From the sequence record PQ821640: 64,000 nt of DNA, one strand, 5' to 3'. The position numbers and the translations under genes were made by a program. This document shows, piece by piece, positions 32,308 to 47,699 of this stretch. Positions within the stretch are counted from its first letter, which is position 1; every line of letters starts with the position of its first letter. The notes beneath the pieces are model-generated. The model ran no database searches and was not told the origin of the DNA. It saw only the letters and a list, made by a program, of their open reading frames with translations. The stretch is from Escherichia phage SD2.

Positions 32308-32943
32308 ATGGGAATACCATTTGATTTAAAACTTGATGGTTCTAACGATTTAGTAATGGTGGATGGTGATTTAACACTAACCACAACTAAAAGTGAAATT
32401 GCAGCACAGACGCTTGGAATAACACTTAGAACTTTCCGTGGAGAATGGTTCCTCAATTCTAATTTTGGGGTTCCATATCTGCAAGAGATTATTGGTGTTG
32501 CCAAGAAGAAAGAGATTGTTGATCGCATTTTCTTATCAACTATCGCAAGTAATGTTTATATAGATAATATTAATTCCTACACGTCCTCTTATGATAGAGA
32601 TGATAGGTATTACTCAATGAACGTTACTGTTACAGTTGGTGAACAAGTTGTTAGTGCGCTGTTCAGTACACAGCCGTCTGAAGAATATATTTATCCAGAA
32701 GCTGGTGATGATAATGCAGCAATCACTTGTGAAGCATTTGAAATTGTTGAATCTGCAAATAGACTCTATCGCTTTATTAACATTGTTGGTCTTCCTAAAG
32801 ATACTTATTCTACTTGGTGGAATGAATGGTCTAACGAGGCATTGCTTGAAAAATACCTTGTTAACGAAGCCAATAAAGGTCTTGCAACCAATTACAACTA
32901 TGCTATAACAGCAACAATGGGAGCTACAAATAATAATGGCTGA
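32308..32943 (+). CDS. baseplate wedge protein (gp25/gpW-like)
   Basis: N-terminal GIPFDLKLDG...DLVMVDGDL...EIAAQTLGITLRT pattern of gp25-like proteins. Confidence 0.45.
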   Translation: MGIPFDLKLDGSNDLVMVDGDLTLTTTKSEIAAQTLGITLRTFRGEWFLNSNFGVPYLQEIIGVAKKKEIVDRIFLSTIASNVYIDNINSYTSSYDRDDRYYSMNVTVTVGEQVVSALFSTQPSEEYIYPEAGDDNAAITCEAFEIVESANRLYRFINIVGLPKDTYSTWWNEWSNEALLEKYLVNEANKGLATNYNYAITATMGATNNNG

Positions 32944-33409
32944 TTTAACTACAATCAAGGTGTCTGATCTACCTGTAACAACATCTGTTTCAGACACAGA
33001 TTATTTTGTAACAGATCAATCAGGTATCACTAAGAAAACATCATTACGTGTTCTTCTTGCGGGTGCTGGTGTTACACGAAATCGTCTTTCTGCAAGGGGT
33101 ACTGTCACAAATACCCTAGCTTTAGATATTAGCACGGCAGAGTATTTCTCTGCCACTTTATCTAGTCCAACTTGCAGTATTTCATTTAGTAATGTTCCAG
33201 TTACAACTAACATTGTTCAAAACTTTACTCTATCCCTACGTCAAGGAAGTGGAGCAAATAAAGTAACGTGGCCTCAATCTGTTAAATGGAGTTTTGGTCG
33301 CGCTCCTGTTTTGAGTTATAAACAGGGAGCTACAGATATTTTTGAATTTGTTAGTTATGATAATGGAGCTACCTGGATAGGTAGTTTAGTGATGGCAGGA
33401 GTGATTTAA
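32936..33409 (+). CDS. small tail fibre-related protein with fibre N-terminal motif
   Basis: N-terminus TIKVSDLPVTTSVSDTDYFVTDQ parallels the N-terminus of the 38462 tailspike. Confidence 0.4.
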   Translation: MADLTTIKVSDLPVTTSVSDTDYFVTDQSGITKKTSLRVLLAGAGVTRNRLSARGTVTNTLALDISTAEYFSATLSSPTCSISFSNVPVTTNIVQNFTLSLRQGSGANKVTWPQSVKWSFGRAPVLSYKQGATDIFEFVSYDNGATWIGSLVMAGVI

Positions 33410-36285
33410 TGTCAAGAATTAAGCACAGAATTGACAATGTTTTTCAACTGATCGATGGACATATTCAGTTCTTAGATCGTAATACAGGTTTAACTGTAGA
33501 TCCTACAGTGCAACACTATGTATTAAACCCACAAAACGTTCTAGCTAATAACAGACACTTTATAAACTGGACTGCTCAAGAAGGGCAACCAAACGGGGAT
33601 GCTACAACAGAAGGTCAATCCGTGCTTATTCTTGGTTGCGCTTATGCATACCTGGCTTCCGGCGATACAAAGTATTTAGACTCTGCTAAAAAATATTGGC
33701 AAGCATATATAGATTACTTCTTTGGTGGTCAACCTATCCCAGATCCGCCAGCAAAATATCGCCCTAACTGGATTATTAACGGTAAAGAACCGCGTCTTGC
33801 ACACTATCCTCTTACAGATGATGGCTACCCTACACACGGAGGTTTTAAGGGTAGCTTAATGACGTGGACTAACGGTAGAACAGTTATTCCTCATGGTGCT
33901 CCTCATTGGGGAGAATACCTTGACAAAGCATGGTTTGCTTTTAATGGTAATCTAGGATGGAACTCTGTAAACGCTACAGTATATGCTGTTAATGCAGATG
34001 GTACAACAGATTGGTCTAAGAAGGGAGATCAATGGGATGTTGATTGGATCATTGATCGTCTAGGACGTAAAGTTGACTGGGATGGGAATATCTTAGAAGA
34101 AGGTTTTCCAACATCTCAATACGGAACAGTTCAACTAAAAAATACTTCTGTAAACGGTACATATAAATTTAACTACGCGACTTGTAACCCTGTTGAACAC
34201 GGTGGTTATTTAATGGAGCGTAACACTATGTGGCATAACAGACCAGTTAACGTTCCGGTAGAAATGGGCTTTCAGGATAATGCGTCAGATGCTGAAACTT
34301 GGTGGTGTGATGCTAATTACCTGATGTACCAAATTACAGGAGAAAGAAAATATTGGCTATGCTGGCAGTCTTCACTGTTAGTGTGTCAAGATTACTCAAA
34401 CATTGATATGTTTGATAAATTCTTCCGTAAGTCTACATATGCAACTATCCCGTTTACAGATGGCATCTCTTACGATTATTCGTATCCATCTACAGCAATA
34501 CCTAAATATTCAAGAGATACTTTAGGCTATATTGTTATTAGACAAGATGTTGCTGCTCAAACAACATTAGAACAGCAAGCCATTTGGTTTAAAGTTGATC
34601 AGAACTCTAAGTTACGAGTCCAGTTTCAAGGTGTAGATGACGCAGGACATGGTATTCTTTTCCGTCCAGAGTTGGAATTAAGTAAGACCAAAGATGAAAA
34701 TAACACAGTAACTTACCGTTGTGGCTTACCACTGGGTACAGCTCATATGACAAGCATGGATATTCCACTATCCAGCTTTATGAGAAGCACCCCTCCGAAT
34801 GGTGGAACATATATTATCGCAGACCCGCGAATTATTGTTGACTGGGGTGACAATACTGTGGTACAATATAAGTATGTAACAGGTATTGCTGGAACTAATA
34901 ATGACCAGATTGTTACTGCATCAATGGATACGGATGGTGGTATCACTGTTGGTTTTTGGTTAACTCCTACATCAAAAGCTAATGTTAAGTCTATCACATA
35001 TAGAACATATGAAGATGATTTTAACATGACTATCACGGATGCTCAAGGTTGGAGATGGTGGGCTATGCTGCCTAAAACGCAAGGAGCATGGAGTACGAAG
35101 ACTTTATCAGCTTCTGATTTTCAGTTAAGTGCTTACCAGCCTAATCATCCAGATACAGATCCTAAACCTTCGGCAATAAATCTTACTGCGGTAGATCAGG
35201 TAAATTTAGTTCTAGATACGGCTCCTGTCAATGGTTTAACAGGAACAATAGATTTCTATTGTATTAACGATGTACCTGAAAGATATTCATCATCTTCTGG
35301 TGATGATTATACCATGTACTTCCGTATCACTGTACAGGCTTCAAGTCCTCATACTGCTAAGTTAGGTGATTGTACTATTATTGACTATAAGTTAAATAGT
35401 CTTAATTACACACCAGGAATAATTCCATTCTCTAATATCAGTGACCCAAACACTGCATTATACGATGGATGGCGTGGTATTCCATACCCAGGATACCAGT
35501 ATCCTTCCTTATACTGTTTCGCAGGTAGGGATATTGATTGGACACGTTTAAACAACAGTATTGATTTCTTGTATGATGCTCAAATGTGGTTTTATAACAC
35601 GTTTGATCCTGTGATGCCTGGGCCTATGGCACAAGCATATGTGTGGGATCGTTGGGATGCAAGAAAATACGGTGAACCGAATACGTTTACAATGAAACAC
35701 TGGAATGAAAAAGCGTGGGATGGTTATGAAGCTCGTGCATTTTACTGTGCTTGCCATGCAGTATACGAACTTGTACAAAGAGGAGAAACACCTCCTGAAA
35801 AACTAGTAACAGTTTGTAAAAATTGGATCAACTATCTTAAATGGTTCCAAGACAATAATGATGGAAGAACACCAACTATCTTTAACCCAGATGGTACAGT
35901 TCTTGCACCTATAGATGACTTTACTAGTCATATGTCTGCACTGTTTATGGCGGGTTGTTCAATCATGGGTTTGGCAGGTTATGATTCACAAATTCCAAAC
36001 ATTGGTATTGTAGCAGACAGATGTTTTGATCTGATTCAGCAAAACTATATTGTGCTTTCCCCTAACCATCCGATGAATGGTTCTTGGAGTGTTGCACCGC
36101 GTCCAGATTCAGATAACGGAATGTTCTTTGGTTTCCATGCTGGAGAACTATTACGTGGTTTTGGTTTATATGCCTTGTATCGTAAACTAAACCCTCAAAA
36201 CGCTTTACCAATTTTGGACAATAGTAACATACCGACACTAACTGTTCTAACTATGAATGATATTAGTGTTGATGTAACCAAATAA
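33409..36285 (+). CDS. large tail-associated protein with alpha/alpha-barrel glycoside-hydrolase-like segments (candidate depolymerase)
   Basis: 958 aa; segments LILGCAYAYLASGDTKYLDSAKKYWQAY and WWCDANYLMYQITGERKYW resemble (alpha/alpha)6 barrel enzymes. Confidence 0.4.
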   Translation: MSRIKHRIDNVFQLIDGHIQFLDRNTGLTVDPTVQHYVLNPQNVLANNRHFINWTAQEGQPNGDATTEGQSVLILGCAYAYLASGDTKYLDSAKKYWQAYIDYFFGGQPIPDPPAKYRPNWIINGKEPRLAHYPLTDDGYPTHGGFKGSLMTWTNGRTVIPHGAPHWGEYLDKAWFAFNGNLGWNSVNATVYAVNADGTTDWSKKGDQWDVDWIIDRLGRKVDWDGNILEEGFPTSQYGTVQLKNTSVNGTYKFNYATCNPVEHGGYLMERNTMWHNRPVNVPVEMGFQDNASDAETWWCDANYLMYQITGERKYWLCWQSSLLVCQDYSNIDMFDKFFRKSTYATIPFTDGISYDYSYPSTAIPKYSRDTLGYIVIRQDVAAQTTLEQQAIWFKVDQNSKLRVQFQGVDDAGHGILFRPELELSKTKDENNTVTYRCGLPLGTAHMTSMDIPLSSFMRSTPPNGGTYIIADPRIIVDWGDNTVVQYKYVTGIAGTNNDQIVTASMDTDGGITVGFWLTPTSKANVKSITYRTYEDDFNMTITDAQGWRWWAMLPKTQGAWSTKTLSASDFQLSAYQPNHPDTDPKPSAINLTAVDQVNLVLDTAPVNGLTGTIDFYCINDVPERYSSSSGDDYTMYFRITVQASSPHTAKLGDCTIIDYKLNSLNYTPGIIPFSNISDPNTALYDGWRGIPYPGYQYPSLYCFAGRDIDWTRLNNSIDFLYDAQMWFYNTFDPVMPGPMAQAYVWDRWDARKYGEPNTFTMKHWNEKAWDGYEARAFYCACHAVYELVQRGETPPEKLVTVCKNWINYLKWFQDNNDGRTPTIFNPDGTVLAPIDDFTSHMSALFMAGCSIMGLAGYDSQIPNIGIVADRCFDLIQQNYIVLSPNHPMNGSWSVAPRPDSDNGMFFGFHAGELLRGFGLYALYRKLNPQNALPILDNSNIPTLTVLTMNDISVDVTK

Positions 36286-36293
36286 GGAAAATA

Positions 36294-38453
36294 ATGAAAC
36301 AGGCTATTTTTACTGTAACTCGAAATACGAGAGTAAATGCCAGTTCATTCAGCTATAAGACCGTCGATGGAACGGCGGTCGCTGGTAGAGATTATGTAGC
36401 TAAACAGGGAACAGTAACGTTCCCTTCTGATGCAGATTCTGCTACTGTAGTGGTTGATGTATATGAACGTCCGGCAAACTCTTTAGATCTTTATTTTACT
36501 CTTGAGATTACTAGCATAAGTCAAAATAACATGATGATCAATGAAGAAATTCGTTGTGTTATTACGACTAATCAATCGAATACAACCCCGCTAACTTGGC
36601 CTGTTGTGAAGTCTAGAATGTTTGATCCTAAGTTTTGGACAATAGATTCTCAAGCAACAGAAAGTTGTTCTATTATCTCTAATGGTGATTCTTTCACAGC
36701 AAGAATGGTTAATAGGACAGTGGCTGGTCTTGCTGGGATTATTTGGTCAACTTACGATAAATATGATCACAAAGGATTAGGCTACCAAGAACATTCTGAC
36801 TTAAGTAAAGAGAAACTTTGGTTTAAGATGGAACTTAGTCAAGGTGTTCCTGGATTAAAAGAAGAAAAATTATTGCCATCCTTAACAGTGACACTGAAGG
36901 ATGAAACAGTTCATTATGTATCTCTAAACTTTTATGCAGAAGAAGTTTCAGAGGATGGTAAAACAGCAACAATCAAATTAGATTTCTCAAACTTAAAATC
37001 GGGGCCAGAAAATAATATTGTTGTTGACACTACACAAATAGATAATATGTTCTTCTCCTTGATCTCAACGAGGTATCAAGAAATTGAAGATATTATTCCT
37101 GTGGATAATGTGGATCTTTCCTTTAAGTTTACCATACTGGAGCCTGATACTGGTTACAGTATGATGAATATGGGTAATTTAAATGTTCCAGCACACACCA
37201 TAAGAATGTGTACATCTTATGATGATATGTATAACCTGACCCCAGAGCGAGTTATTTCTAACACCTATAGATTAGGTTATAGGGATATGATTAACCACTA
37301 TAATGGTATGTCACACTATTATCAGTTTAGTTGGGATGCTGGTTCTAATAAATGGGCTTTGAATAGAACAGAATATTTAAACCCAGCAACAGAAGCATGG
37401 TTTGATAATTTCCACGCTAATGCAAAAGCTATGGGCTACACAGTAATGAATTCCTTAAGTTTTGAACTTATGAGTACAGTGTGTCCTGTAGAATGGGTAC
37501 AACATACTTGGAATGATGATCTTGCTGCTACAGGTTATGAGCCACCAAGTTATGTATTATCTCCTTCGATTGATGAAGGGATGAATTATTTACAAGGTGT
37601 GATAAATAAGATAGCCTCTATATCCGCTGCTAATGATCTTCCGGTTATTATTCAGGTTGGTGAACCGTGGTGGTGGTATAACACAGCTACCAATCTACCG
37701 TGTATTTATGATTATACAACCAAAGTTGCATTTAATAATGAAACTGGATTATATGCACAAGATGTTGGTACAGTTAAGAATTATAAAACTGGTACACCAT
37801 ATGATGAATATTATGCATTCCTATCTAAAACATTAGGACTGCGTGTTGCTAAATTTGCAACAGATACTAGATTAGCATATCCTGGAGCAAAAGTTACATT
37901 GTTACCATTTGTGCCATCCATTTTGGGTAATGGTATGATGGAGTTTGTTAACTTCCCTAAAGATTATTATATCCCAGAAAACTTTGACTTTTATTGTTCA
38001 GAATGTTATGACTGGTTGTTGGAAGGTAAGATGGAAAAATCTTTCGACGCTATCACAATACCTAATGAGCAACTAGGTTTTAGTTACGATAAGATACATT
38101 ATCTTGCAGGGTTTGTTCCAGATGCAACTCTAGCACCATTATATGGCTTTGATCCTGAATCAAACTATAGAACATATTTGTGGAAAATGATTATAGGTAA
38201 TATTGTATTGAATGACCAGAAGTTTGTTGGTTTATATCAATACATATGGGCTTACCCACAAATAATGCATGATTCAATAACTGTTCTTAATTCAAAATCC
38301 CAAGTGTTTTATATGGGTAATGTGCCTTTGAATTGCTACTTGCAAGATATCACTCTTAAACAGGTAAATGTTGAGATTGCCACTATAAGTGGAATTACAT
38401 TAGCCACTAAATCTGGAGAAGATTTAGTAACAACACAAAAATTTTATATATAG
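36294..38453 (+). CDS. large tail fibre or baseplate protein with Calx-beta-like N-terminal segment
   Basis: N-terminal DGTAVAGRDYVAKQGTVTF resembles a Calx-beta motif; 719 aa. Confidence 0.35.
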   Translation: MKQAIFTVTRNTRVNASSFSYKTVDGTAVAGRDYVAKQGTVTFPSDADSATVVVDVYERPANSLDLYFTLEITSISQNNMMINEEIRCVITTNQSNTTPLTWPVVKSRMFDPKFWTIDSQATESCSIISNGDSFTARMVNRTVAGLAGIIWSTYDKYDHKGLGYQEHSDLSKEKLWFKMELSQGVPGLKEEKLLPSLTVTLKDETVHYVSLNFYAEEVSEDGKTATIKLDFSNLKSGPENNIVVDTTQIDNMFFSLISTRYQEIEDIIPVDNVDLSFKFTILEPDTGYSMMNMGNLNVPAHTIRMCTSYDDMYNLTPERVISNTYRLGYRDMINHYNGMSHYYQFSWDAGSNKWALNRTEYLNPATEAWFDNFHANAKAMGYTVMNSLSFELMSTVCPVEWVQHTWNDDLAATGYEPPSYVLSPSIDEGMNYLQGVINKIASISAANDLPVIIQVGEPWWWYNTATNLPCIYDYTTKVAFNNETGLYAQDVGTVKNYKTGTPYDEYYAFLSKTLGLRVAKFATDTRLAYPGAKVTLLPFVPSILGNGMMEFVNFPKDYYIPENFDFYCSECYDWLLEGKMEKSFDAITIPNEQLGFSYDKIHYLAGFVPDATLAPLYGFDPESNYRTYLWKMIIGNIVLNDQKFVGLYQYIWAYPQIMHDSITVLNSKSQVFYMGNVPLNCYLQDITLKQVNVEIATISGITLATKSGEDLVTTQKFYI

Positions 38454-38461
38454 GAGTAAAA

Positions 38462-40810
38462 ATGTCAACTACAATTACTAATTTACCCGAAACATCAAAA
38501 GTTAATGATTCTGATTACCTGGTTTTAGACCAACCTGATAAGACTGTTAAAAGCACAGTTTCCAACTTTCTTACTGACACTGGGGTGGTTTTAGCCACCC
38601 AGCTAGAAGATATTTCTGGAGCTACCAAGTATCCAGAACTTCAAATGTCGCGCTGGAGAGATGAAGGTGATGTTCGTGGGTGGGGTGCAAAGGTTGATGG
38701 TGTAACAGATGACTCTGATGCATTGATTGCAGCAATTAACTCTGGTCGTTCTAAATTGATCTTACCAGCAGGACGTTGTGTTATCTCTAAAACTTTAGAG
38801 ATTCCTGCCGGGGTAACTCTTGAAGGGCAGGGTATTGATTATTGGGATACTTGGCGTCCTGATGAAACTCGTTTGTTGAAGAGTTGGGATAAAGGAACCC
38901 ATATTGTAGTAACTGGTACAGGTCTTCGTAATAAGACGTTTGGTAACTTATCTAATGAACGTCCTGTTAAAACTGTATCCGGTACTGTCTGTGAGTTTAC
39001 TAAGTTTACTAATGAAGATGCATCAGGTACTACTCCAGCCACGTTGAAGTCATTCAGTGTAGCTGTGTCTGTAACCCATGCATCCCAGTTAAAGAACTTA
39101 CGTATTCTACTCAATAATGATGGTATTGATGGATATAACGATTTTGTCTCTACAGCTTTGGGTGATGATTGGGACATTGGTCTGCATGTATATGATAGTT
39201 CAGAAGCTGTTGTTGAGAATGTTCAGGTATGCGGTTACTGGAGAGTTGCAGGTACTCTGCTAACAGAGAATGATGGTTCCTTCACTATGATAGGGAATCC
39301 AGAAAGAACTCGATTCAATCGTTTCTTTACTCAGGGTATCCGTGGTCTGTTGATTCGTAATAGTCCACAGATTGATGTAGTTAGTAATACAACTGACTCT
39401 GTTACGTTTAAGAAACAGACCTCTTTACGTATTACTGCAACTAACTCATTCAGAATCCCTGGTAGTGCAACACAATATGTATTCACCGGTTCTACTACTG
39501 ATGGTACTAACATTACTTTGACTGGAGTTACACCAGCATTGCCAGTATCTATTGGGGTTATTCGTTTCCCTAATATTGGGAATAACTTCTCTGGTACTGT
39601 GTTTGAGAATACTGTTACTACAAGTTTTGAACACTCGTCTGGTAAATCATCGGATACACTTGGTCTGCCTGTAGCATTCGCTATGGAGATTGATGGTTAT
39701 CCTATGCGTAACCTTCGCTTCGATAAGTTTAAAGCACAGACTACCTTTGATAAGGGTAATACCCTATTTGGTGATTGCCGTGACATTAAGATTACTTCTT
39801 CTGAATTTGAGAATGGTTTAGTAGTAGCTTATAGCCTTGCAGAGACTCAAGGGTATACAGGTAACCTTCGTCTGTTTGCATCTGATCTTCAGGCATCTAC
39901 TGATACAACTGGATTTAATCCAAGAGATGCATTCTTAGATAATAAACAGATTAAGACAGACTTTACCGATGGTTCCTTTATTTTGAAGAACTGGCGAGAT
40001 ACCAATACACGAATTCAGTTCTCTGATGGTAGTGATGGTATTGTCATGCGAGAAGGAGCAAGTGAAGCATCTCCTGGCGGGTACTATATGTATACCAAGG
40101 ATGGATTACGTTGGCTTTCCCTGAATGGTGTAACCAAAGGAATAGATTTCGCTGTCTCCAACGGCAGTATTAAATATGCTACTGACAACAGTGTGGTATT
40201 TAACTGGTACGGTGCATCTGGAAACATGAACTTTAAAGGTACTATTTCCCCTCTGGTAGATAATTCTAAATCATTGGGTACAGGTACATTCCGTTGGTCA
40301 CAGTTGTTTGCTGGTAGTGGTACTATCAATACATCTGATGCAAGAGAGAAAACAACTCCTCATGCTATTACGGATGATATATTAGATGCTTGGGGTGATG
40401 TATCTATTATTGCTTTCCAATGGCTTAACATGGTTAAAGCTAAAGGTGGTGATAGTGCTCGTTGGCATTTTGGCGTTATTGCTCAACAGGTCAGAGATGC
40501 ATTCAATGCGCATGGTATTGATGGAACCAGATTGGGTCTGCTTTGCTATGACGAATGGGAAGACCAATACGAACCTGTAATGGCTACTCGTGATGTTGTA
40601 ACCCGTATTGAAGTTTCTGAGGGAGTATTCGTAGAAAGAGTCACTCAAGAAGAATATGATACTGGTGAGACTAAGTTAGTTGTTGCAGCAGGTAGTCGTT
40701 GGGGTATTCGTCCAGATCAATGTGCTTGGTTAGAGGCTGCTTACCAACGTAGACGTAGTGATAGAATTGAAGAACGTTTAGCTGCTTTAGAGAAACGTTT
40801 ATCAAATTAA
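38462..40810 (+). CDS. tailspike with pectate-lyase-like beta-helix and C-terminal self-cleaving chaperone domain
   Basis: WGAKVDGVTDDSDALIAAIN motif; C-terminal SDAREK cleavage-site motif followed by a conserved chaperone-like tail ending RLAALEKRL. Confidence 0.65.
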   Translation: MSTTITNLPETSKVNDSDYLVLDQPDKTVKSTVSNFLTDTGVVLATQLEDISGATKYPELQMSRWRDEGDVRGWGAKVDGVTDDSDALIAAINSGRSKLILPAGRCVISKTLEIPAGVTLEGQGIDYWDTWRPDETRLLKSWDKGTHIVVTGTGLRNKTFGNLSNERPVKTVSGTVCEFTKFTNEDASGTTPATLKSFSVAVSVTHASQLKNLRILLNNDGIDGYNDFVSTALGDDWDIGLHVYDSSEAVVENVQVCGYWRVAGTLLTENDGSFTMIGNPERTRFNRFFTQGIRGLLIRNSPQIDVVSNTTDSVTFKKQTSLRITATNSFRIPGSATQYVFTGSTTDGTNITLTGVTPALPVSIGVIRFPNIGNNFSGTVFENTVTTSFEHSSGKSSDTLGLPVAFAMEIDGYPMRNLRFDKFKAQTTFDKGNTLFGDCRDIKITSSEFENGLVVAYSLAETQGYTGNLRLFASDLQASTDTTGFNPRDAFLDNKQIKTDFTDGSFILKNWRDTNTRIQFSDGSDGIVMREGASEASPGGYYMYTKDGLRWLSLNGVTKGIDFAVSNGSIKYATDNSVVFNWYGASGNMNFKGTISPLVDNSKSLGTGTFRWSQLFAGSGTINTSDAREKTTPHAITDDILDAWGDVSIIAFQWLNMVKAKGGDSARWHFGVIAQQVRDAFNAHGIDGTRLGLLCYDEWEDQYEPVMATRDVVTRIEVSEGVFVERVTQEEYDTGETKLVVAAGSRWGIRPDQCAWLEAAYQRRRSDRIEERLAALEKRLSN

Positions 40811-40820
40811 GCAAGCAAGG

Positions 40821-41015
40821 ATGCTTGCTCCTACTAGAAAAATAAAGAGGTACTATAAGGAGACGCAAAGGGCGTATTCCCTACCTGCTGATATTGCCCC
40901 AGGTACTACTGCCATTAGTCTTAGTGCTGCTGTACTTGTGCATTCAGCGGGTTCTGTAGACCTTGGGGAATTAGCTGTATCTCGTGATTTAAAAAGTAAT
41001 GAGAACGCATTATGA
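40821..41015 (+). CDS. hypothetical small protein (64 aa)
   Basis: Short ORF; start overlaps a hairpin. Confidence 0.25.
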   Translation: MLAPTRKIKRYYKETQRAYSLPADIAPGTTAISLSAAVLVHSAGSVDLGELAVSRDLKSNENAL

Positions 41016-41257
41016 GAAAGTTTTTAATCGGAATGTTTTGTACATATCCTGATAATAAAGTCAGCTCTACTAAAGTTTGGAATGCTATTGGTATGATTGT
41101 TATGTCCAGTATGTTTATTTATTTGGGAATTGATAAAGAAATTCCTGAATGGATGGGCTGGGCTTTTGTTTTTATGATCACACCATCCAGACTAATGAAG
41201 AATTTAATAGATTTACGTTGGGGTAGATCACCTGCCCCTGATAAGGAGGATAACTAA
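41012..41257 (+). CDS. holin-like small membrane protein (81 aa)
   Basis: Two hydrophobic segments (VWNAIGMIVMSSMFIYLGI and WMGWAFVFMITP) and charged C-terminus. Confidence 0.35.
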   Translation: MRKFLIGMFCTYPDNKVSSTKVWNAIGMIVMSSMFIYLGIDKEIPEWMGWAFVFMITPSRLMKNLIDLRWGRSPAPDKEDN

Positions 41258-42744
41258 TGGCAGATTATGGTTTAACAGATGCTGGTTTTGTCATTCCAAC
41301 GTTTGATGATATTTTAAATAATTATATGACAGCATTGAAAAACACTTTCGGTGCAGATACAGCTACATCCGAAGATACTGTCTTTGGTCAACTGTTTCGT
41401 ATTATTGCATATACAGATTACACCCTTTGGGAAGGTATGCAAGGTGTTTACAATACCCAAACCTTAGATGGTGCAGAAGGTATTTACCTTGATGAAATTT
41501 TCTCTAAAAGGGGTTTTTATCGTAAAGCTGCTTCTGCTGGTAGTGGTTATGCTTATGTTAAATCTAACAATAAGGCAGCTTGGACTTATGAACTAAGCAC
41601 AGATGTTTATTTTAATGCCGATAACGATTTGACATATTATGTCAGTGCACCAACAATGTTGAATGCTAAGATTGGAGCATATACCATTTCTAAAGCAAAC
41701 GCAACAGCTTCTGGTGAAACTTCTATTACTTTCTACATTCAAAGTGCTATTGATGGTGGTCTTAACAGTAAAACACTAAGTCCTAGCAATACAAACTTTA
41801 TTGTAGATCTCACGAATTTCATTAAAGCTAACGTATCAACAACAGATCGTGCTTTAGTATGGAATGATGCGAGTAATGTTTATATGGGTTATAATCCAGA
41901 AGATAATGTTAACCCAATAGGTCTAGTAACACCAGTGAAATTTTATGCATCCATTGCAATTGGTACAAAATGGAGTGAAATTCCAGTTACGTGTTCAGAC
42001 GTTGGTTATAATCCAGTAGGTACAGAAAGTATTACAGGTATTTCTTCAACGTTTACAGGCTTTTTAGATACAGGTAACTTCTATCCTTTCTCTCCAGGTA
42101 CAGATGTTGAAACAGATGCAGAATTCCGTTCTCGTTTCAATGATAATATGGATGAAGCTAATGCTGCTACTCGTGCTGCTATTGTTAAAGCTCTATTACT
42201 GACAGATGGTGTGACAAAGGTTAAGATTTATGATAACCCTACACTACACGATCAAGAACATGCTCCAGCTATGACATTCCAAACTATTGTGTACGGTGGT
42301 ACAGCAGAAGAAGTTGCACAGGTTATTTATAATACTAAGCCTATCAACACCTTAACTTATGGTACGACAGCAATTACTATCATAACAGAAGATGGTGGTC
42401 AAGAAGTAATTCGTTTTTCTCCTGGTGATAATGCGGAATACTCACTTAAACTGGTATATCAAACTGGTAATGGTAGTGTGTTAAGTACAACAGAAAGAGA
42501 AAATATTGTTTCTGCTCTTGCAAACTTACAGGCTTATTTTGAATTAGGGTCAACAGTAACTAACGACCAGATAAAAGGTGTAATTTATTCTGCACTTGCG
42601 TTCGGACGCTTGACTTCTCTCCGTGTTTATGTTAAACTTAATACTGAGGATGACAGTAAATATAATGAGGGAGATATCACTCCAGCGTACAATGTTGTAC
42701 CATCCTTTGACCTTGATAATATTTCCTACGAGTACGGAGTCTAA
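41257..42744 (+). CDS. baseplate J-like protein
   Basis: N-terminal pattern (GFVIPTFDDIL...LDGAEGIYLDEIFSKRGFYRKAASAGSGYAYV) typical of baseplate J family; followed by I-, H-, G-like genes. Confidence 0.5.
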   Translation: MADYGLTDAGFVIPTFDDILNNYMTALKNTFGADTATSEDTVFGQLFRIIAYTDYTLWEGMQGVYNTQTLDGAEGIYLDEIFSKRGFYRKAASAGSGYAYVKSNNKAAWTYELSTDVYFNADNDLTYYVSAPTMLNAKIGAYTISKANATASGETSITFYIQSAIDGGLNSKTLSPSNTNFIVDLTNFIKANVSTTDRALVWNDASNVYMGYNPEDNVNPIGLVTPVKFYASIAIGTKWSEIPVTCSDVGYNPVGTESITGISSTFTGFLDTGNFYPFSPGTDVETDAEFRSRFNDNMDEANAATRAAIVKALLLTDGVTKVKIYDNPTLHDQEHAPAMTFQTIVYGGTAEEVAQVIYNTKPINTLTYGTTAITIITEDGGQEVIRFSPGDNAEYSLKLVYQTGNGSVLSTTERENIVSALANLQAYFELGSTVTNDQIKGVIYSALAFGRLTSLRVYVKLNTEDDSKYNEGDITPAYNVVPSFDLDNISYEYGV

Positions 42745-42746
42745 AA

Positions 42747-43376
42747 ATGGCAGTGAGTGTTGACCATGTGACAACGTGGGATAGTATCAATGAAGATGTT
42801 AAAGACCTACTGATTGAAGATTTTAAATCTTCTCCGAACATTGTCAAACTACTCTATATCATTTCTAGCGAAAAACAAAAGATAGATCAGGCAATGATCT
42901 ATCTTGCCAAACACCGCTTAATCTCTACTGCAACTGGTAAGTATTTAGATCTTATTGGTGAAGAGATGGGGATGGAGAGAAATGGTGCTACGGATGAAGA
43001 GTATCGTACAATATTAAAAATCAGGGCTTATCGTGTTGCGTCTTCTGGTACGCGAGATGATATCATTGATATGTTCGCTCGTTTTACAGGAACAGAAAAA
43101 GAAACGATCAATACATACGTTGGATTAAATAAAACATTCGACGTATTCTTTTATAATTTGTGTCTACAATCCGATCAGGCAGTAGCACAGTTACTTAACG
43201 TTTTCCCGATCCTAAGTAGTTATCGCTTAGGTGCGAAAGCGGGTGCAGCCTTTGGTTTCACTTCCTATTATGCCACAAAGCCACCTCATGGTATAGGTGG
43301 TTTAGGTTCTCTTTACACAGAGGCTGAAGGAGATGATACAGGGCGAATGACTATGCTGATAGCTCAAATAGAATAA
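42747..43376 (+). CDS. baseplate protein I-like
   Basis: 209-aa ORF directly after the J-like gene. Confidence 0.4.
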   Translation: MAVSVDHVTTWDSINEDVKDLLIEDFKSSPNIVKLLYIISSEKQKIDQAMIYLAKHRLISTATGKYLDLIGEEMGMERNGATDEEYRTILKIRAYRVASSGTRDDIIDMFARFTGTEKETINTYVGLNKTFDVFFYNLCLQSDQAVAQLLNVFPILSSYRLGAKAGAAFGFTSYYATKPPHGIGGLGSLYTEAEGDDTGRMTMLIAQIE

Positions 43377-43389
43377 GGAGTTACTCTTA

Positions 43390-44370
43390 ATGGCAAAGCC
43401 ACAATACTACCCTGACTGGGCGACACAAACAGTAACCCTCCCAGGAACGGGAAACACAAACAAGATTAGACCAAAAGAAACCATCCGTAATGTTGGTATG
43501 GACTTTGGTCAGATTATGACTTGTGAAGAAATGAACTGGATCTTAAACAATATTGGGTCTTGGATTCGCTATATGCAAGATGAATTCTTCCCAACATTGC
43601 CTACTACATATCTTCCTATAGTCGGTACTAAAATTACAATGGCAGGTGATGCTACAGGTGAAGTTACATGGAACGGTAATGCTGCTGTAACATTGTCTAT
43701 CCAAGTCGTAGATAACAGTCATAATCACTTATCAGCTAACATTACAGACGCAACATCAAACCAAGTTGTAGGGAATGTCCTTGTTAAGCGTGATAATGGT
43801 GGTGCTATCTATGCAGGTGATATTTACACTTGTGGTACAGGTGCTACAGATCCTGCAACATTATTTTTTAGAAACTATAATGGACAAACAGTAGGCAATA
43901 TGTCTTCTGAACCAGGTGCAGGTGGTCAACTCTATATTTATAGAATAAATCCATCTACTGGAGGAACATCTTGTGGAGTCCGTTTGTATGATGCAGGTTA
44001 TGTTTTAATAGACAATCCTCGTTCTAATTCTGGTCAAGATACTGGCAATGGTAATGCTCTTGTAAGATTAGATTATCTTAACTCAAGACTAAACTCATTG
44101 CAAAGTACACTGCAAAATAATATTAACAACGTTAATAGCAACTTGCAAGGCCAAATTAATAACATTAACAATAGAGTTTCTTCTGTTGTGTCTTCTATCC
44201 GTCTAGGTACACGTATTAAAGCTGGTGTATCTGAATCTCCTTTCTATGCTGGTCACGTGATCACAGGCTGGGGTTTTGGTGATAAGAAAGAACTTCGTGG
44301 TGCTTGGTATTGGTCTGCTCCGCTACAATATTACATTAATGGTAGGTGGATAACAGTAACCAACGTTTAG
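43390..44370 (+). CDS. tail fibre protein
   Basis: Asn/Gln-rich repetitive segment NNINNVNSNLQGQINNINNRV; followed by assembly-chaperone-sized gene. Confidence 0.5.
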   Translation: MAKPQYYPDWATQTVTLPGTGNTNKIRPKETIRNVGMDFGQIMTCEEMNWILNNIGSWIRYMQDEFFPTLPTTYLPIVGTKITMAGDATGEVTWNGNAAVTLSIQVVDNSHNHLSANITDATSNQVVGNVLVKRDNGGAIYAGDIYTCGTGATDPATLFFRNYNGQTVGNMSSEPGAGGQLYIYRINPSTGGTSCGVRLYDAGYVLIDNPRSNSGQDTGNGNALVRLDYLNSRLNSLQSTLQNNINNVNSNLQGQINNINNRVSSVVSSIRLGTRIKAGVSESPFYAGHVITGWGFGDKKELRGAWYWSAPLQYYINGRWITVTNV

Positions 44371-44382
44371 TAAGGAGAACAC

Positions 44383-44934
44383 ATGAAAAAAGATGTTATT
44401 TACACTGGCTTTGAACTATATCAACCAGAATTGACAGAAGAAAATGTCATCTATCTTTCAATAGGTGCTGGTTTTCTTAAAGATAAAGATGGTAATGATT
44501 GGTACGAAATTCAGAAATATTTATCCAAAAATTACCCTGATGCCTATTTCTTAACTCTAGATCACAACAATGTAGTTGTTGCAGCTACGAAAGATGTTTC
44601 TACATATTTTCCCGCTGGTCTTACTGTTCTTGTAACATACAATGTTCCAGATAAGATAGAAGAAGAAAGCAACCTAGGATCGTGGAGATATGACAATGGT
44701 AAGTTTGTTTCTCATAATGGGTTTGCAATAGAAGATGCCAACCTTAAGATGGAAAAAGAATTAACTTGGGCCACAAATCAAATATCTGCAATTCAAGATT
44801 TAGAGGAATTACAAGGTTTATCTGAAGAACAAAAAGATTGGTTAGGAAAAGTTAAACTATATCGTGCAACACTGATTCAAATTAACGTTGAAGATGCACC
44901 TAATATAACTTGGCCTACAAGACCTAAGAAATAG
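44383..44934 (+). CDS. tail fibre assembly chaperone-like protein
   Basis: 183-aa ORF directly downstream of the fibre gene. Confidence 0.4.
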   Translation: MKKDVIYTGFELYQPELTEENVIYLSIGAGFLKDKDGNDWYEIQKYLSKNYPDAYFLTLDHNNVVVAATKDVSTYFPAGLTVLVTYNVPDKIEEESNLGSWRYDNGKFVSHNGFAIEDANLKMEKELTWATNQISAIQDLEELQGLSEEQKDWLGKVKLYRATLIQINVEDAPNITWPTRPKK

Positions 44935-44943
44935 GGGTAATGT

Positions 44944-45285
44944 ATGGAGCTAACAGAAGTATGGGATATCGCTAAAGAGGCGATTATCCCTCTTATTGGT
45001 GTAATCTGGGTGGTCTTCAAACAGAAGATAGATGATATAGCAAGTGATTTGGATAAAATGGAAGACAAATACCGTGAACTAGAAAAGAAGTTGGTGTTTG
45101 TTGAATCCACTTATGCTACCAAAGCAGAACTTGCTCAAATGCTTAACCAGATCAACTCTACATTAATGGCAAATAATACTGCCTTAGAACAGAAGATTGA
45201 AAAAATAATGGATTTAAAAAATGCTCCTGTTCAATTAATGCTAGAGGAGATTACGAAGCGCACACAAAGTAAGGACAAAAATTAA
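44944..45285 (+). CDS. hypothetical coiled-coil protein (113 aa)
   Basis: Charged helical sequence; start overlaps downstream gene. Confidence 0.35.
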   Translation: MELTEVWDIAKEAIIPLIGVIWVVFKQKIDDIASDLDKMEDKYRELEKKLVFVESTYATKAELAQMLNQINSTLMANNTALEQKIEKIMDLKNAPVQLMLEEITKRTQSKDKN

Positions 45286-47699
45286 TGGCGAATTTTCCAA
45301 CATATCCTGCTACGACACTAGAACAAGGTGTTGATCTGGTTATATTCTCGTCTAACCAGATGCATGATGTTATTAACGGGGATGCTACAGCAACTGTAGA
45401 AACCGAAACAGGTTTAATACCTACACTGCGTAAAGCACTTGTTGATAACTTCTTCTTTAAGAGTCCTGTTGCTTGGTCAGCAGGATCAACTGAAACTGTA
45501 TTTAACCAGTTACGTTATTTTGAAAACGGTATCTTGAGTGGGTACTACTATGCCCCATCTGCCACTACTGCGAACCCTGTACCTATGCAGGGTACACCTG
45601 TAGGAGATAGTAACTGGACTCTGTACGCTCTTAAAACTGAACAGTTAGCTTCAGATGTGTATCCTTGGTATTTTAAAGGTGCTACAGGATATGAAACAGA
45701 AATCAGTCCTCCTTATATCTTTGATAATGCTATTGTCACCATTAACGGTGTAATTCAGATTCAAGGTGAAGCATTTACTATCAAAGATAGTAAAATTATT
45801 CTGGCAGAACCATTAGGTTTAGATCCGTCTACTGGTCTACCTAACAAATTGTTTGCTTTTATTGGTAAAACAACAGCCTCTACTTCTTATGTAGAGAAAA
45901 ACCTTTTGTCATCTACCACTGGTGCAGCAATGGTTGGTCTTCCATCTGGAGGCAACCTGTTACAAGCTCAATACTTTGTAACGCCTGAACAGTTTGGTGC
46001 AATTGGTGATGGAGTTACCGATGATACTCAAGCAATTCTAAAAACCATTACTTTCGCTAACACGAATAACATTCAAGTACGTGCAGATAAGAATTATAGA
46101 TTCACAAGCTCAATTGCTATGTCTGGTATTCGTTGGTATGGTGGTACATTCACTGGTAACGGTGGAACAATGATTTCTACTGTGTCCTGTTGGATTGAAA
46201 ACGTTCGCTTTGAAAAATGTTATGTTAAGATGTTAGGTGGTGATTGTCGATTCTATCGTAATATCTTCTCCAACGCAACATCTACAGCAGCATTTTTAAT
46301 GCAAGCAATGACAAGTGAAGGTACGTTGGACTTCAGTTACAACGAAATGTATGGTTGTAAATATGCGATCCTGCAACAAGGTACTGGAGAAGTAATGACC
46401 TATGGGCGTTACTCTAACAACTACATTCACGATATCAAAGGTGATGCTATTGAACTTAACGTAGTTCAAAAACACTACACTGAAGGTTTGATCATCGAGA
46501 ATAACCACATTGCTAACGTAGATGCTTCTGGACAAGGGGCAAACTGGGGTATTGGTATTGGTGTAGCAGGTAGTGGCCCATATGGTGTTGATGCTCCTGA
46601 TTCACAATATGTACGTAACTTCAGTATCGTTGGGAATAGGGTTTACAATTGCCGTCAATGTTTACACGTTGAAATGGGTAAAAACTTTACGATACGTGAT
46701 AATGAAGTTTATCCTAACACAGCAGTTTCAACAGGTACAGGTTTAACTACTTGTGGTGTTGCATTATACGGATGCCAAGATTTTGAAGTTGATGGTTTAA
46801 CTGGTTATCTGCTTAATGATCCGTCTGTTTCAACACGCATGGTCTTTATTGACTGGGGTGTTAACAGTGGAAGATATGCGGGGCCACCAATTAACTTTAC
46901 AATTAAGAATTTGGATATTCCAGAATCTTCAATTGAAATTGCAACGGCTGGATCAGATGCCTGGGAAAACTCTACAATTGTTAGTAACATCAATTGTAAT
47001 GTTTTTAAATGGCGTGGACTACCATCTAGCTCTACCTTTAATAATATTCGTTGCCGTAGTATTGACTTTATTGGTCAACACGGAAGCGGAGAAGGAAGTG
47101 GTGGCGGTTTCTATACTCGCAGCCAATTCACTTATATGAAGTGGGTAGGATGTACAGCACTTAGCGGAGATGAAACAACAGTTTCTTTTGCTAAAATCTA
47201 CACGGATCGTTGCGATCAGGTTGGAAATAACTTTGGTGTTCCAACTGCTGTTGATGGTACAGGTCATCGTGGGCCAGTCTTAACCACTATTTCTGAACAA
47301 TATTTTACAGATTATGATGAATTCCCAGGTGGGCGTGACTTCCCTACTGGAACAGTTATTCATTGTGCAAGCGGTAAAAAACACGTTGTTACAGTAGGTG
47401 GTGCTTTCTTTAGTAATAATGAGAAAATAAAAGCAACTGTTACAGGTCAAACCTATCTACAGTCTAATGCTTTAAACTGGGCTAGTAATGGCTACGCTAA
47501 AGCAGCAGGTACTAAGATTGTTATTCCAGGTGCAGGTGCAAATGGCGGCGATCTTGTGACAACTATAGCACGTGCTACGTATGTGACAAATAGTTTGTAC
47601 ACAATAGATATTGCAGATCCAATTGTAACACCTACAGCAGAGAATACAAAAATTAAAGCTCTGAACCCTGTTACTTTTGTTACTGTCAATAATGCTTAA
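45285..47699 (+). CDS. tailspike with pectate-lyase-like beta-helix (candidate depolymerase)
   Basis: FGAIGDGVTDDTQAILKTITFANTNN motif; 804 aa; terminator after stop. Confidence 0.6.
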   Translation: MANFPTYPATTLEQGVDLVIFSSNQMHDVINGDATATVETETGLIPTLRKALVDNFFFKSPVAWSAGSTETVFNQLRYFENGILSGYYYAPSATTANPVPMQGTPVGDSNWTLYALKTEQLASDVYPWYFKGATGYETEISPPYIFDNAIVTINGVIQIQGEAFTIKDSKIILAEPLGLDPSTGLPNKLFAFIGKTTASTSYVEKNLLSSTTGAAMVGLPSGGNLLQAQYFVTPEQFGAIGDGVTDDTQAILKTITFANTNNIQVRADKNYRFTSSIAMSGIRWYGGTFTGNGGTMISTVSCWIENVRFEKCYVKMLGGDCRFYRNIFSNATSTAAFLMQAMTSEGTLDFSYNEMYGCKYAILQQGTGEVMTYGRYSNNYIHDIKGDAIELNVVQKHYTEGLIIENNHIANVDASGQGANWGIGIGVAGSGPYGVDAPDSQYVRNFSIVGNRVYNCRQCLHVEMGKNFTIRDNEVYPNTAVSTGTGLTTCGVALYGCQDFEVDGLTGYLLNDPSVSTRMVFIDWGVNSGRYAGPPINFTIKNLDIPESSIEIATAGSDAWENSTIVSNINCNVFKWRGLPSSSTFNNIRCRSIDFIGQHGSGEGSGGGFYTRSQFTYMKWVGCTALSGDETTVSFAKIYTDRCDQVGNNFGVPTAVDGTGHRGPVLTTISEQYFTDYDEFPGGRDFPTGTVIHCASGKKHVVTVGGAFFSNNEKIKATVTGQTYLQSNALNWASNGYAKAAGTKIVIPGAGANGGDLVTTIARATYVTNSLYTIDIADPIVTPTAENTKIKALNPVTFVTVNNA

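Follow-up and report, generated by a model that had tools for sequence, protein, structure and literature searches.

What does a small membrane protein do between a tailspike gene and a baseplate wedge gene? The question is raised by a locus of Escherichia phage SD2 (sequence record PQ821640), a phi92-like coliphage (Justusliebigvirus, Stephanstirmvirinae) of which a stretch of 64,000 nucleotides, hereafter the window, was analysed. The gene concerned encodes a protein of 81 amino acids (aa), and we use X as the name for this protein and for its homologues:

41012..41257, plus strand: gene X, homologue of Phi92_gp144 and member of phrog_1322; ATG start, 81 codons and TAA (stop included).

A preliminary description of the window had placed an 81-aa open reading frame (ORF) between the tailspike and J-like genes, exactly as we find it, and had called its product holin-like. 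Our analysis indicates that X probably has a role of some kind in lysis, because homologues belonging to phrog_1322 sit between endolysin and spanin genes in several unrelated phage lineages, and we lean towards X being the holin of this phage, with a class II topology. The epithet "holin-like" is thus partly supported, although by the cassette context of the homologues and not by any match to the holin families of Pfam or NCBIfam.

X matches phrog_1322, a family described as "membrane protein", with an E-value of 4.7e-27, residues 1-80 aligning to profile positions 3-82 of 87. Using distant members of the family and ORF27 of the Ralstonia Mu-like phage RS138 as queries, we collected the homologues that lie in lysis cassettes, and these and their neighbours were typed with PHROGs. 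In RS138 the order is endolysin (phrog_873, 3.8e-63), X (ORF27; phrog_1322, 8.6e-23) and Rz spanin (phrog_1403, 4.9e-51). The Pseudomonas Mu-like phage Bise has Mor, a VanY-like endolysin (phrog_2649, 1.6e-32), X (1.2e-19), a lipoprotein that is weakly Rz-like and a protein with a transmembrane domain (TMD) and a coiled coil. Mu-like prophages of Neisseriaceae and Cupriavidus carry GemA, Mor, endolysin, X, an Rz-like gene and a DksA-type zinc finger, followed by terminase and portal genes; the Neisseriaceae prophage resembles Bise (Mor, VanY-like endolysin, X, Rz-like gene) and the Cupriavidus prophage has the layout of RS138. The Pseudomonas phage Dolphis (93 kb) encodes the endolysin gp37 (phrog_181, 3.9e-76), X as gp38 (1.7e-14), then gp39, which resembles an inner-membrane spanin (i-spanin) with its TMD and coiled coil, and gp40, a lipoprotein resembling an outer-membrane spanin (o-spanin). 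In the Ralstonia phage RP13 (171 kb) we found ORF32 (a weak holin match), the muramidase ORF31 (phrog_315, 3.4e-45), X as ORF30 (2.4e-13), which has an extra N-terminal TMD, and the spanins ORF29 and ORF28. Finally, on a metagenomic contig of 36 kb (L023) a gene for an Rz-like spanin (phrog_1804, 1.4e-20) is directly upstream of X (phrog_1322, 1.5e-16).

A pattern scan of IMG/VR, made with a retrieval motif typical of the Mu-like branch, returned 68 loci with relatives of X, 67 of which could be judged because they had enough upstream DNA. An endolysin gene ends just before X in 64 of these 67 loci, and the enzymes fall into five classes: GH108-like muramidases of phrog_315 (45 loci), phrog_873 (7), VanY-like peptidases of phrog_2649 (5), amidases of phrog_822 (4) and lysozymes of phrog_90 (3). 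Adding the phrog_181 enzyme of Dolphis and the Amidase_3 enzymes described below, X is paired with at least seven types of endolysin, which argues for a general lysis role and not for the control of one enzyme. The association between X and an endolysin is kept in both temperate and virulent phages.

The baseplate genes of three metagenomic myoviruses (L017, L018 and L020) resemble in kind those of the window: Dit-like, Pam3_gp18, E217_gp41, spike and sheath initiator. After the sheath initiator these contigs encode a soluble Amidase_3 endolysin (phrog_435, 1.2e-38), then X, an i-spanin (phrog_1152, 3.4e-20), an overlapping o-spanin-like ORF that starts M-(L)-M-G-C, and finally a wedge protein of 498 aa; a further short contig, L019, holds X and the same pair of i-spanin and o-spanin only. 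The X of L020 matches phrog_1322 at 4.3e-18. Its wedge protein is 40% identical over the full length (E 3e-117) to the gp145 counterpart of the window and its X is 36% identical to ours, so the gene studied here is the counterpart of a gene inside a four-gene cassette of a related baseplate module. Profile-profile comparison of the phi92-like subfamily of X with the cassette subfamily gave a probability of 93.9% (E 1.5e-7, 68 columns). All the endolysins adjoining X, as well as the phi92-type lysozyme, are without an N-terminal TMD or signal-anchor-release (SAR) domain and therefore need a holin whose holes let a folded enzyme pass. In the Amidase_3 (L017-L020) and RS138-type cassettes, no small multi-TMD protein other than X is encoded between the endolysin and spanin genes.

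The membrane segments of X were predicted with the Kyte-Doolittle scale (19-residue window) and AlphaFold2 models, and the protein can be divided as follows:

41012..41074, plus strand: N-terminal segment, residues 1-21, predicted cytoplasmic; a short amphipathic helix, then an S-x-T-K motif before the first TMD.
41075..41131, plus strand: predicted transmembrane helix 1, residues 22-40; Kyte-Doolittle peak 1.71 (strong).
41132..41149, plus strand: acidic loop DKEIPE, residues 41-46, predicted periplasmic from the charge pattern.
41150..41197, plus strand: predicted transmembrane helix 2, residues 47-62; Kyte-Doolittle peak 0.93 (weak).
41198..41254, plus strand: C-terminal amphipathic helix (K-N-L-I-D-L-R-W-G) and variable charged tail, predicted cytoplasmic.

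The two hydrophobic segments and the charged C-terminus noticed in the preliminary description are both borne out, the segment at residues 47-62 being clearly weaker than that at residues 22-40, and 9 of the last 22 residues being charged. AlphaFold2 gave a model with a predicted local distance difference test (pLDDT) score of 63.6 and a break at P58 when 19 sequences were used, and one with a pLDDT of 68.9 from an alignment of 42 sequences, with helices at residues 2-9, 19-41 and 46-70, the last of them continuous. Over 21 members of the family the mean net charge is +0.4 in the N flank, -0.86 in the loop and +1.7 in the C-terminal flank, a distribution that fits a two-helix hairpin with both termini inside, as in the layout of class II holins. 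X is small, with at least one predicted TMD and a hydrophilic charged C-terminus, and so has the size and anatomy by which holins are recognised.

Conservation follows the same plan. S18, T20 and K21 are invariant or nearly so family-wide, and E46-W47 is the most conserved pair of the family, each residue being at least 90% conserved. The region of helix 2 is the most conserved block of the phi92-like subfamily, in which 22 residues are invariant and concentrated in I-P-E-W-M-G-W and L-I-D-L-R-W-G around this helix; L65, I66, L68, R69, W70 and G71 are among the invariant positions. The tail varies across the family in length and composition. Distant members share S-H-T-K-x-W before helix 1, E-W opening helix 2 and S-K-x-x-x-L-R-x-G after it.

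X is 95% identical to Phi92_gp144, for which the phi92 annotation gives a start 21 nucleotides (nt) further upstream (88 aa); the shorter, remodelled N-terminus is found in this phage, in BME3 and in 48 other records. Using tblastn, we found X in 371 phage records, 308 of which cover at least 80% of the protein with the frame intact, and most of the records are of phages of 120-155 kb that infect Escherichia, Klebsiella, Cronobacter, Salmonella, Aeromonas, Pectobacterium and Erwinia. Pairwise dN/dS (Nei-Gojobori) is about 0.05 against Phapecoctavirus homologues, where synonymous change is saturated, and 0.20 against phi92. X is a real gene under strong purifying selection and not a chance ORF. 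An exhaustive profile search of 1.84 billion cluster representatives returned only 24 X clusters at E <=0.001, so the family is compact.

X lies outside every curated holin family that we compared by sequence, and a sequence search of the PDB with X gave no match. Precomputed matches to DUF2644 (PF10841), weak or faint, exist for several relatives of X, both rV5-like and Mu-like. In our own DUF2644 scan the best relative, P0083, reached 20.9 bits, with 55 of the 59 profile positions aligned, which falls short of the gathering cut-off (22 bits); X itself had no match and the scores of all relatives were below 22 bits. These profile matches suggest that phrog_1322 is faintly related to DUF2644, a Pfam family without assigned function, and a literature search found no paper that mentions it. 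In PHROGs, the category assigned to phrog_1322 is "moron, auxiliary metabolic gene and host takeover".

Both ends of the X gene overlap its neighbours. The ATG of X overlaps the TGA of an upstream 64-aa ORF (ATGA, 41012-41015), and its TAA overlaps the ATG of the wedge gene (TAATG, 41255-41259):

41243..41259, plus strand: AAGGAGG ribosome-binding site (41243-41249, inside the 3' end of X) and TAATG overlap, read from the sequence.
41257..42744, plus strand: baseplate wedge protein, J-like, 495 aa, identical to Phi92_gp145, conserved neighbour downstream of X; PDB 21vq_h and Pfam Baseplate_J.

The annotation of phi92 gives gene 145 the same ribosome-binding site, and the wedge protein matches Phi92_gp145 (PDB 21vq_h) with 1090 bits over residues 1-495. 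X is translationally coupled to the wedge gene through this ribosome-binding site and overlap. In a promoter and terminator scan, promoter-like sites number 27 against 34.8 expected from shuffled sequence and terminator-like sites 6 against 6.2, so neither signal rises above chance. X would thus belong to the late structural operon and be carried on a late transcript.

If X is the holin, it would be made late together with the wedge protein through translational coupling, and its level would be tied to the output of a structural gene. It would insert as a two-helix hairpin, with cytoplasmic termini and a short acidic periplasmic loop, accumulate in the inner membrane and open holes at a set time. 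Through these holes a soluble T4-lysozyme-like endolysin, encoded elsewhere in the genome, would reach the cell wall, and the putative spanins (14367..15033) would then disrupt the outer membrane. The position of X beside the wedge gene and away from the endolysin is best seen as the leftover of a lysis cassette once present in the baseplate module, because the sister lineage keeps endolysin, X, i-spanin and o-spanin in the same slot. A broader proposal, which we make tentatively and rate slightly below an even chance, is that phrog_1322/DUF2644 is a widespread holin family for the soluble endolysins of Mu-like prophages (Haemophilus-type, Neisseriaceae, Pseudomonas, Ralstonia and Cupriavidus) and of rV5/phi92-like myoviruses, that the baseplate module once held the full cassette between the sheath-initiator and wedge genes, and that phi92-like phages have kept the holin alone, tied to wedge production.

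Several observations weigh against X being the holin. It is not beside an endolysin gene here, as the endolysin is encoded outside the window, and 26 kb separate it from the closest lysis genes, which are those of the spanins. Neither X nor nine relatives match a holin model of Pfam or NCBIfam, even at E-values up to 1 or 10, and a literature search found no report of lethal hole formation that can be triggered with an energy poison for any member of the family. The second hydrophobic segment is weak, the AlphaFold2 models are of moderate to low confidence at the pLDDT values given above, and the cassette homologues of RS138 and Bise are poorly hydrophobic in both segments on the Kyte-Doolittle scale. 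The IMG/VR survey is biased and phylogenetically redundant, 45 of its 64 positives being one closely related GH108 group, so that the variety of enzyme classes tells more than the tally of loci. Other membrane proteins are encoded upstream of the endolysin in RP13 (ORF32, which matches the holin family phrog_6384 weakly, at 2.9e-6) and in Dolphis (gp36), and X could be an accessory factor in these two phages. Mu-like late operons hold further small membrane proteins (phrog_462 and phrog_1103). Finally, the GenBank records of ECGD1, ESCO25 and PD06 label X as a "structural protein", and we found no basis for this label.

The main rival explanation, which we consider unlikely though worth taking seriously, is that X regulates lysis instead of making the holes: as an antiholin or timing factor it would bind the true holin within the inner membrane, so that triggering is delayed or made sharper. 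P2 LysA, which is larger than X and has more TMDs, sits between endolysin and spanin genes. It is a putative antiholin, encoded between K and lysB/lysC, and the homologues of X occupy the same place, after the endolysin and before two spanin genes. This likeness is one of gene position. An antiholin of the LysA type would act alongside a separate holin, and several X cassettes are without a separate holin gene. A weak holin candidate does exist upstream of the endolysin in RP13, and Dolphis gp36, with a TMD and a coiled coil, has the equivalent place, but the L017-L020 and RS138-type cassettes hold no other holin. The juxtamembrane motifs PEW and LRWG of X look like protein-contact surfaces. 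In phi92-like phages a two-TMD protein of 68 aa, much more hydrophobic than X, could be the real holin; this protein, called "holin" in BME3 (32943..33149), falls in phrog_16065, a family of unknown function. Its 131 records come almost entirely from phi92/phAPEC8-like coliphages, whereas X is far more widespread (371 records). We regard it as a candidate of narrow distribution for which we found no positive support. The phage CSP1 has antiholin genes beside tail-fibre genes and far from the holin, but X has no sequence relation to CSP1_021 or CSP1_022 (235 and 122 aa, in a phage of 60 kb).

It is improbable that X acts as a membrane-anchored factor for baseplate or tail-fibre assembly, or as a minor virion component. 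In favour of such a role, every rV5-like phage examined has the gene inside the baseplate/fibre module, X is coupled here to the wedge gene and several GenBank records give it the structural label. However, phAPEC8 annotates its homologue as hypothetical, a cryo-electron microscopy study of phi92 (2026) accounts for almost every density of the virion without mention of gp144, the PDB holds no sequence match, and the mass-spectrometry lists of virion proteins of rV5 do not include gp29, the homologue of X, although small hydrophobic proteins are easily missed. Moreover, the position of X in the fibre module shifts between subfamilies, and its homologues in Mu-like siphophages and myophages, in RP13 and in Dolphis adjoin an endolysin and not tail genes. 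T4 Imm and HK97 gp15 are proteins that block the entry of incoming phage DNA, and X is like Imm in size and two-TMD layout; exclusion genes are often found among tail genes, and the PHROGs category of phrog_1322 points the same way. The preliminary description had given superinfection exclusion equal weight. We do not find support for this and consider it very improbable that X is an exclusion protein or another host-takeover membrane protein ("moron"), since X shows neither a promoter nor a terminator of its own beyond the chance level, overlaps the neighbouring genes at start and stop, is a conserved core gene of about 370 virulent phages and not a patchy accessory, and is linked elsewhere to endolysin and spanin genes; the moron category is the default label of PHROGs for a "membrane protein". 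Least probable of all is that X is what remains, decaying and functionless, of an earlier lysis cassette. In phi92-like genomes the genes for the endolysin and the spanins have indeed moved elsewhere, and the N-terminus of X was remodelled by recombination with a tailspike remnant, but the dN/dS of about 0.05 between Justusliebigvirus and Phapecoctavirus copies (with synonymous change saturated), the 22 invariant residues and the intact frame in the 308 longer records argue otherwise.

Comparison with known lysis proteins places the holin reading of X among several partial likenesses. S21 68 of the lambdoid phage 21 is a class II holin with two TMDs and both termini inside, and X is like it in its small size and charged tail and in its predicted two helices, short periplasmic loop, cytoplasmic termini and late expression. 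The differences are that S21 68, a pinholin, acts with a SAR endolysin while the X family is paired with soluble endolysins, and that X is not adjacent to an endolysin gene here. The T4 holin T is a protein of 218 aa that has a single TMD and a large domain in the periplasm. Its gene is likewise apart from the endolysin and beside tail-fibre genes, which is the precedent invoked in the preliminary description, but this is an analogy only: there is no homology between T and the two-helix X, Pfam gives no Phage_holin_T match, the conserved neighbour of X is the wedge gene, and the placement of X is best explained by a formerly embedded cassette.

According to a study of Mu lysis, Mu is without a holin and uses the releasin gp25 (DUF2730), a protein whose role was long unknown, with one N-terminal TMD (N-out, C-in), which acts on SAR endolysins, while other Mu-like phages have cytoplasmic endolysins. 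Both gp25 and X are small membrane proteins of Mu-type late lysis operons, but X has two helices and goes with soluble endolysins. The Mu-like prophages that bear X also carry a protein at the gp25 position (phrog_462). In Mu, lys and gene 23 have no X gene between them, and the X family is absent from the supplement of the Mu lysis paper.

Published proposals for the holin of these phages disagree: gp129 in rV5, and in BME3 either a protein of 61 or 68 residues or the one of 81 residues. The rV5 gp129 (proposed in 2013) is encoded outside the fibre module and is not a homologue of X. For one homologue of X, a single annotation source uses the name "holin". The BME3 record WWY66332.1, annotated as "membrane protein-holin", is identical to X (tblastn, 100%) and lies in the same place before the wedge gene, and the BME3 paper, using DeepTMHMM, saw in the 81-residue protein the features of a topology-II holin. 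Topology is the only basis of that proposal, in which the family assignment and the link to lysis cassettes are absent.

The other probable lysis genes of the window form a spanin pair:

14367..14798, plus strand: probable i-spanin; N-terminal TMD at residues 15-36, then a coiled coil; the syntenic BME3 gene is annotated as i-spanin.
14704..15033, plus strand: probable o-spanin (lipoprotein), overlapping the i-spanin gene; signal sequence and lipobox L-M-M-T-G-C; the syntenic BME3 gene is annotated as o-spanin.

They stand first in the late structural operon, directly upstream of the gene for the terminase large subunit (15042..17126), and any endolysin gene is a long way off. The soluble T4-lysozyme-like enzyme (122575..123075 in BME3) is encoded in the nucleotide-metabolism region of phi92-like genomes. 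A SleB-like cell-wall hydrolase is present as well (BME3, L003:40819-41328; endolysin family phrog_938, 6.7e-21), with a hydrophobic signal-like segment at its N-terminus (residues 1-26), and phi92-like phages thus have two muralytic enzymes, SleB-like and T4-lysozyme-like, with different export routes. Upstream of the spanins, an array of 15 tRNA genes occupies 10089..13525 (plus strand). It contains an ORF of 189 aa with an HNH-like motif (12787..13356) in a gap of 527 nt between tRNA-Met (12845-12923) and tRNA-Ile (13450-13525); the corresponding tRNAs of BME3 are 16 nt apart, which suggests the insertion of a homing endonuclease.

Around X, the fibre and baseplate genes of the window are the following:

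33409..36285 and 36294..38453: tail fibre or spike genes, upstream of the 782-aa tailspike.
38462..40810, plus strand: tailspike, 782 aa, with Peptidase_S74 chaperone domain, upstream of X and at the position of gp143.
40821..41015, plus strand: 64-aa ORF, remnant of a tailspike N-terminal domain (phrog_7992), between the tailspike gene and X.
42747..43376: second wedge protein, gp146, after gp145.
44944..45285, plus strand: 113-aa protein, Phi92_gp149 homologue (phrog_15210); N-terminal TMD at residues 8-29 and a long coiled coil.

After gp146 come the fibre gp147, the fibre assembly protein gp148, the 113-aa gp149-like membrane protein and the colanidase tailspike gp150. The fibre-cassette setting of the preliminary description is therefore right in that a tailspike gene lies upstream, but the 64-aa ORF intervenes and the stable neighbour of X is the wedge gene and not the fibre genes. 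This ORF matches the tail spike family phrog_7992 with an E-value of 6.1e-23 over profile positions 375-420 of 1163, an internal N-terminal stretch only; its 12 PHROG matches include ten other tail or tailspike families, and a short "tail spike protein" much like it is annotated in BME3 and ECGD1. An exchange of tailspike genes has probably left it behind as a scar. It is within this ORF (about 40855-40990) that nucleotide similarity to other phi92-like phages sets in, and beyond about 40855 the 3-kb stretch around X is 98-99% identical to ALITA, BME3, KKE7M and others. The tailspike at 38462..40810 replaces the endosialidase gp143 of phi92 and keeps the Peptidase_S74 chaperone end. Only about 71-72% of 38000-46000 can be aligned to phi92 and other relatives, so the receptor-binding part of this tailspike was swapped.

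In other large phages X keeps to the baseplate/fibre module without always being beside the wedge gene. The wedge gene follows X immediately in phi92-like phages, in phAPEC8 and in the metagenomic myoviruses L022 and L024. In slur16 (rV5-type), PVP-SE1 and the Aeromonas phage 4L372XY, the order is fibre assembly gene, gp149-like one-TMD protein, X and another fibre gene. PVP-SE1 has, between the gp149-like and gp144-like genes, a four-TMD protein (gp43, L007:5452-5925; phrog_7451), which makes three membrane-protein genes in a row inside its fibre module. The Stenotrophomonas phage YB07 (160 kb) is an exception to the pattern: an unannotated phrog_1322 ORF (NC_048755.1, about 33390-33650; L010:6980-7243; E 4.4e-10) adjoins the DNA polymerase gene, without lysis or tail context. 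The 113-aa gp149-like gene is conserved right after the fibre assembly gene, as in rV5 (gp31), PVP-SE1 (gp44), L022 and L024. We considered its product as a relative of the Mu gp25 releasin (phrog_462), since it has weak PHROG matches to phrog_462 and to Rz-like proteins, but rejected this as hhalign gave a probability of 4.4%; it is in architecture alone that it is similar to i-spanins or to proteins of the Mu gp25 position.

The idea that X is a holin was already in print; what is new here is the family-level tie to lysis cassettes, the multiple endolysin classes and the explanation by an embedded cassette. As an annotation, holin is sensible and no surprise, as holins are very diverse and new families are expected. 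The holin of rV5/phi92/phAPEC8-like phages has never been identified, and as these phages are common therapy candidates their lysis timing is of practical value. If the X family is confirmed as holin, it would also fill a gap for the Mu-like phages with cytoplasmic endolysins, whose hole-former is undefined. The same reading, if true, would give a function to a DUF and would document a lysis cassette that was embedded in a baseplate module and later dispersed.

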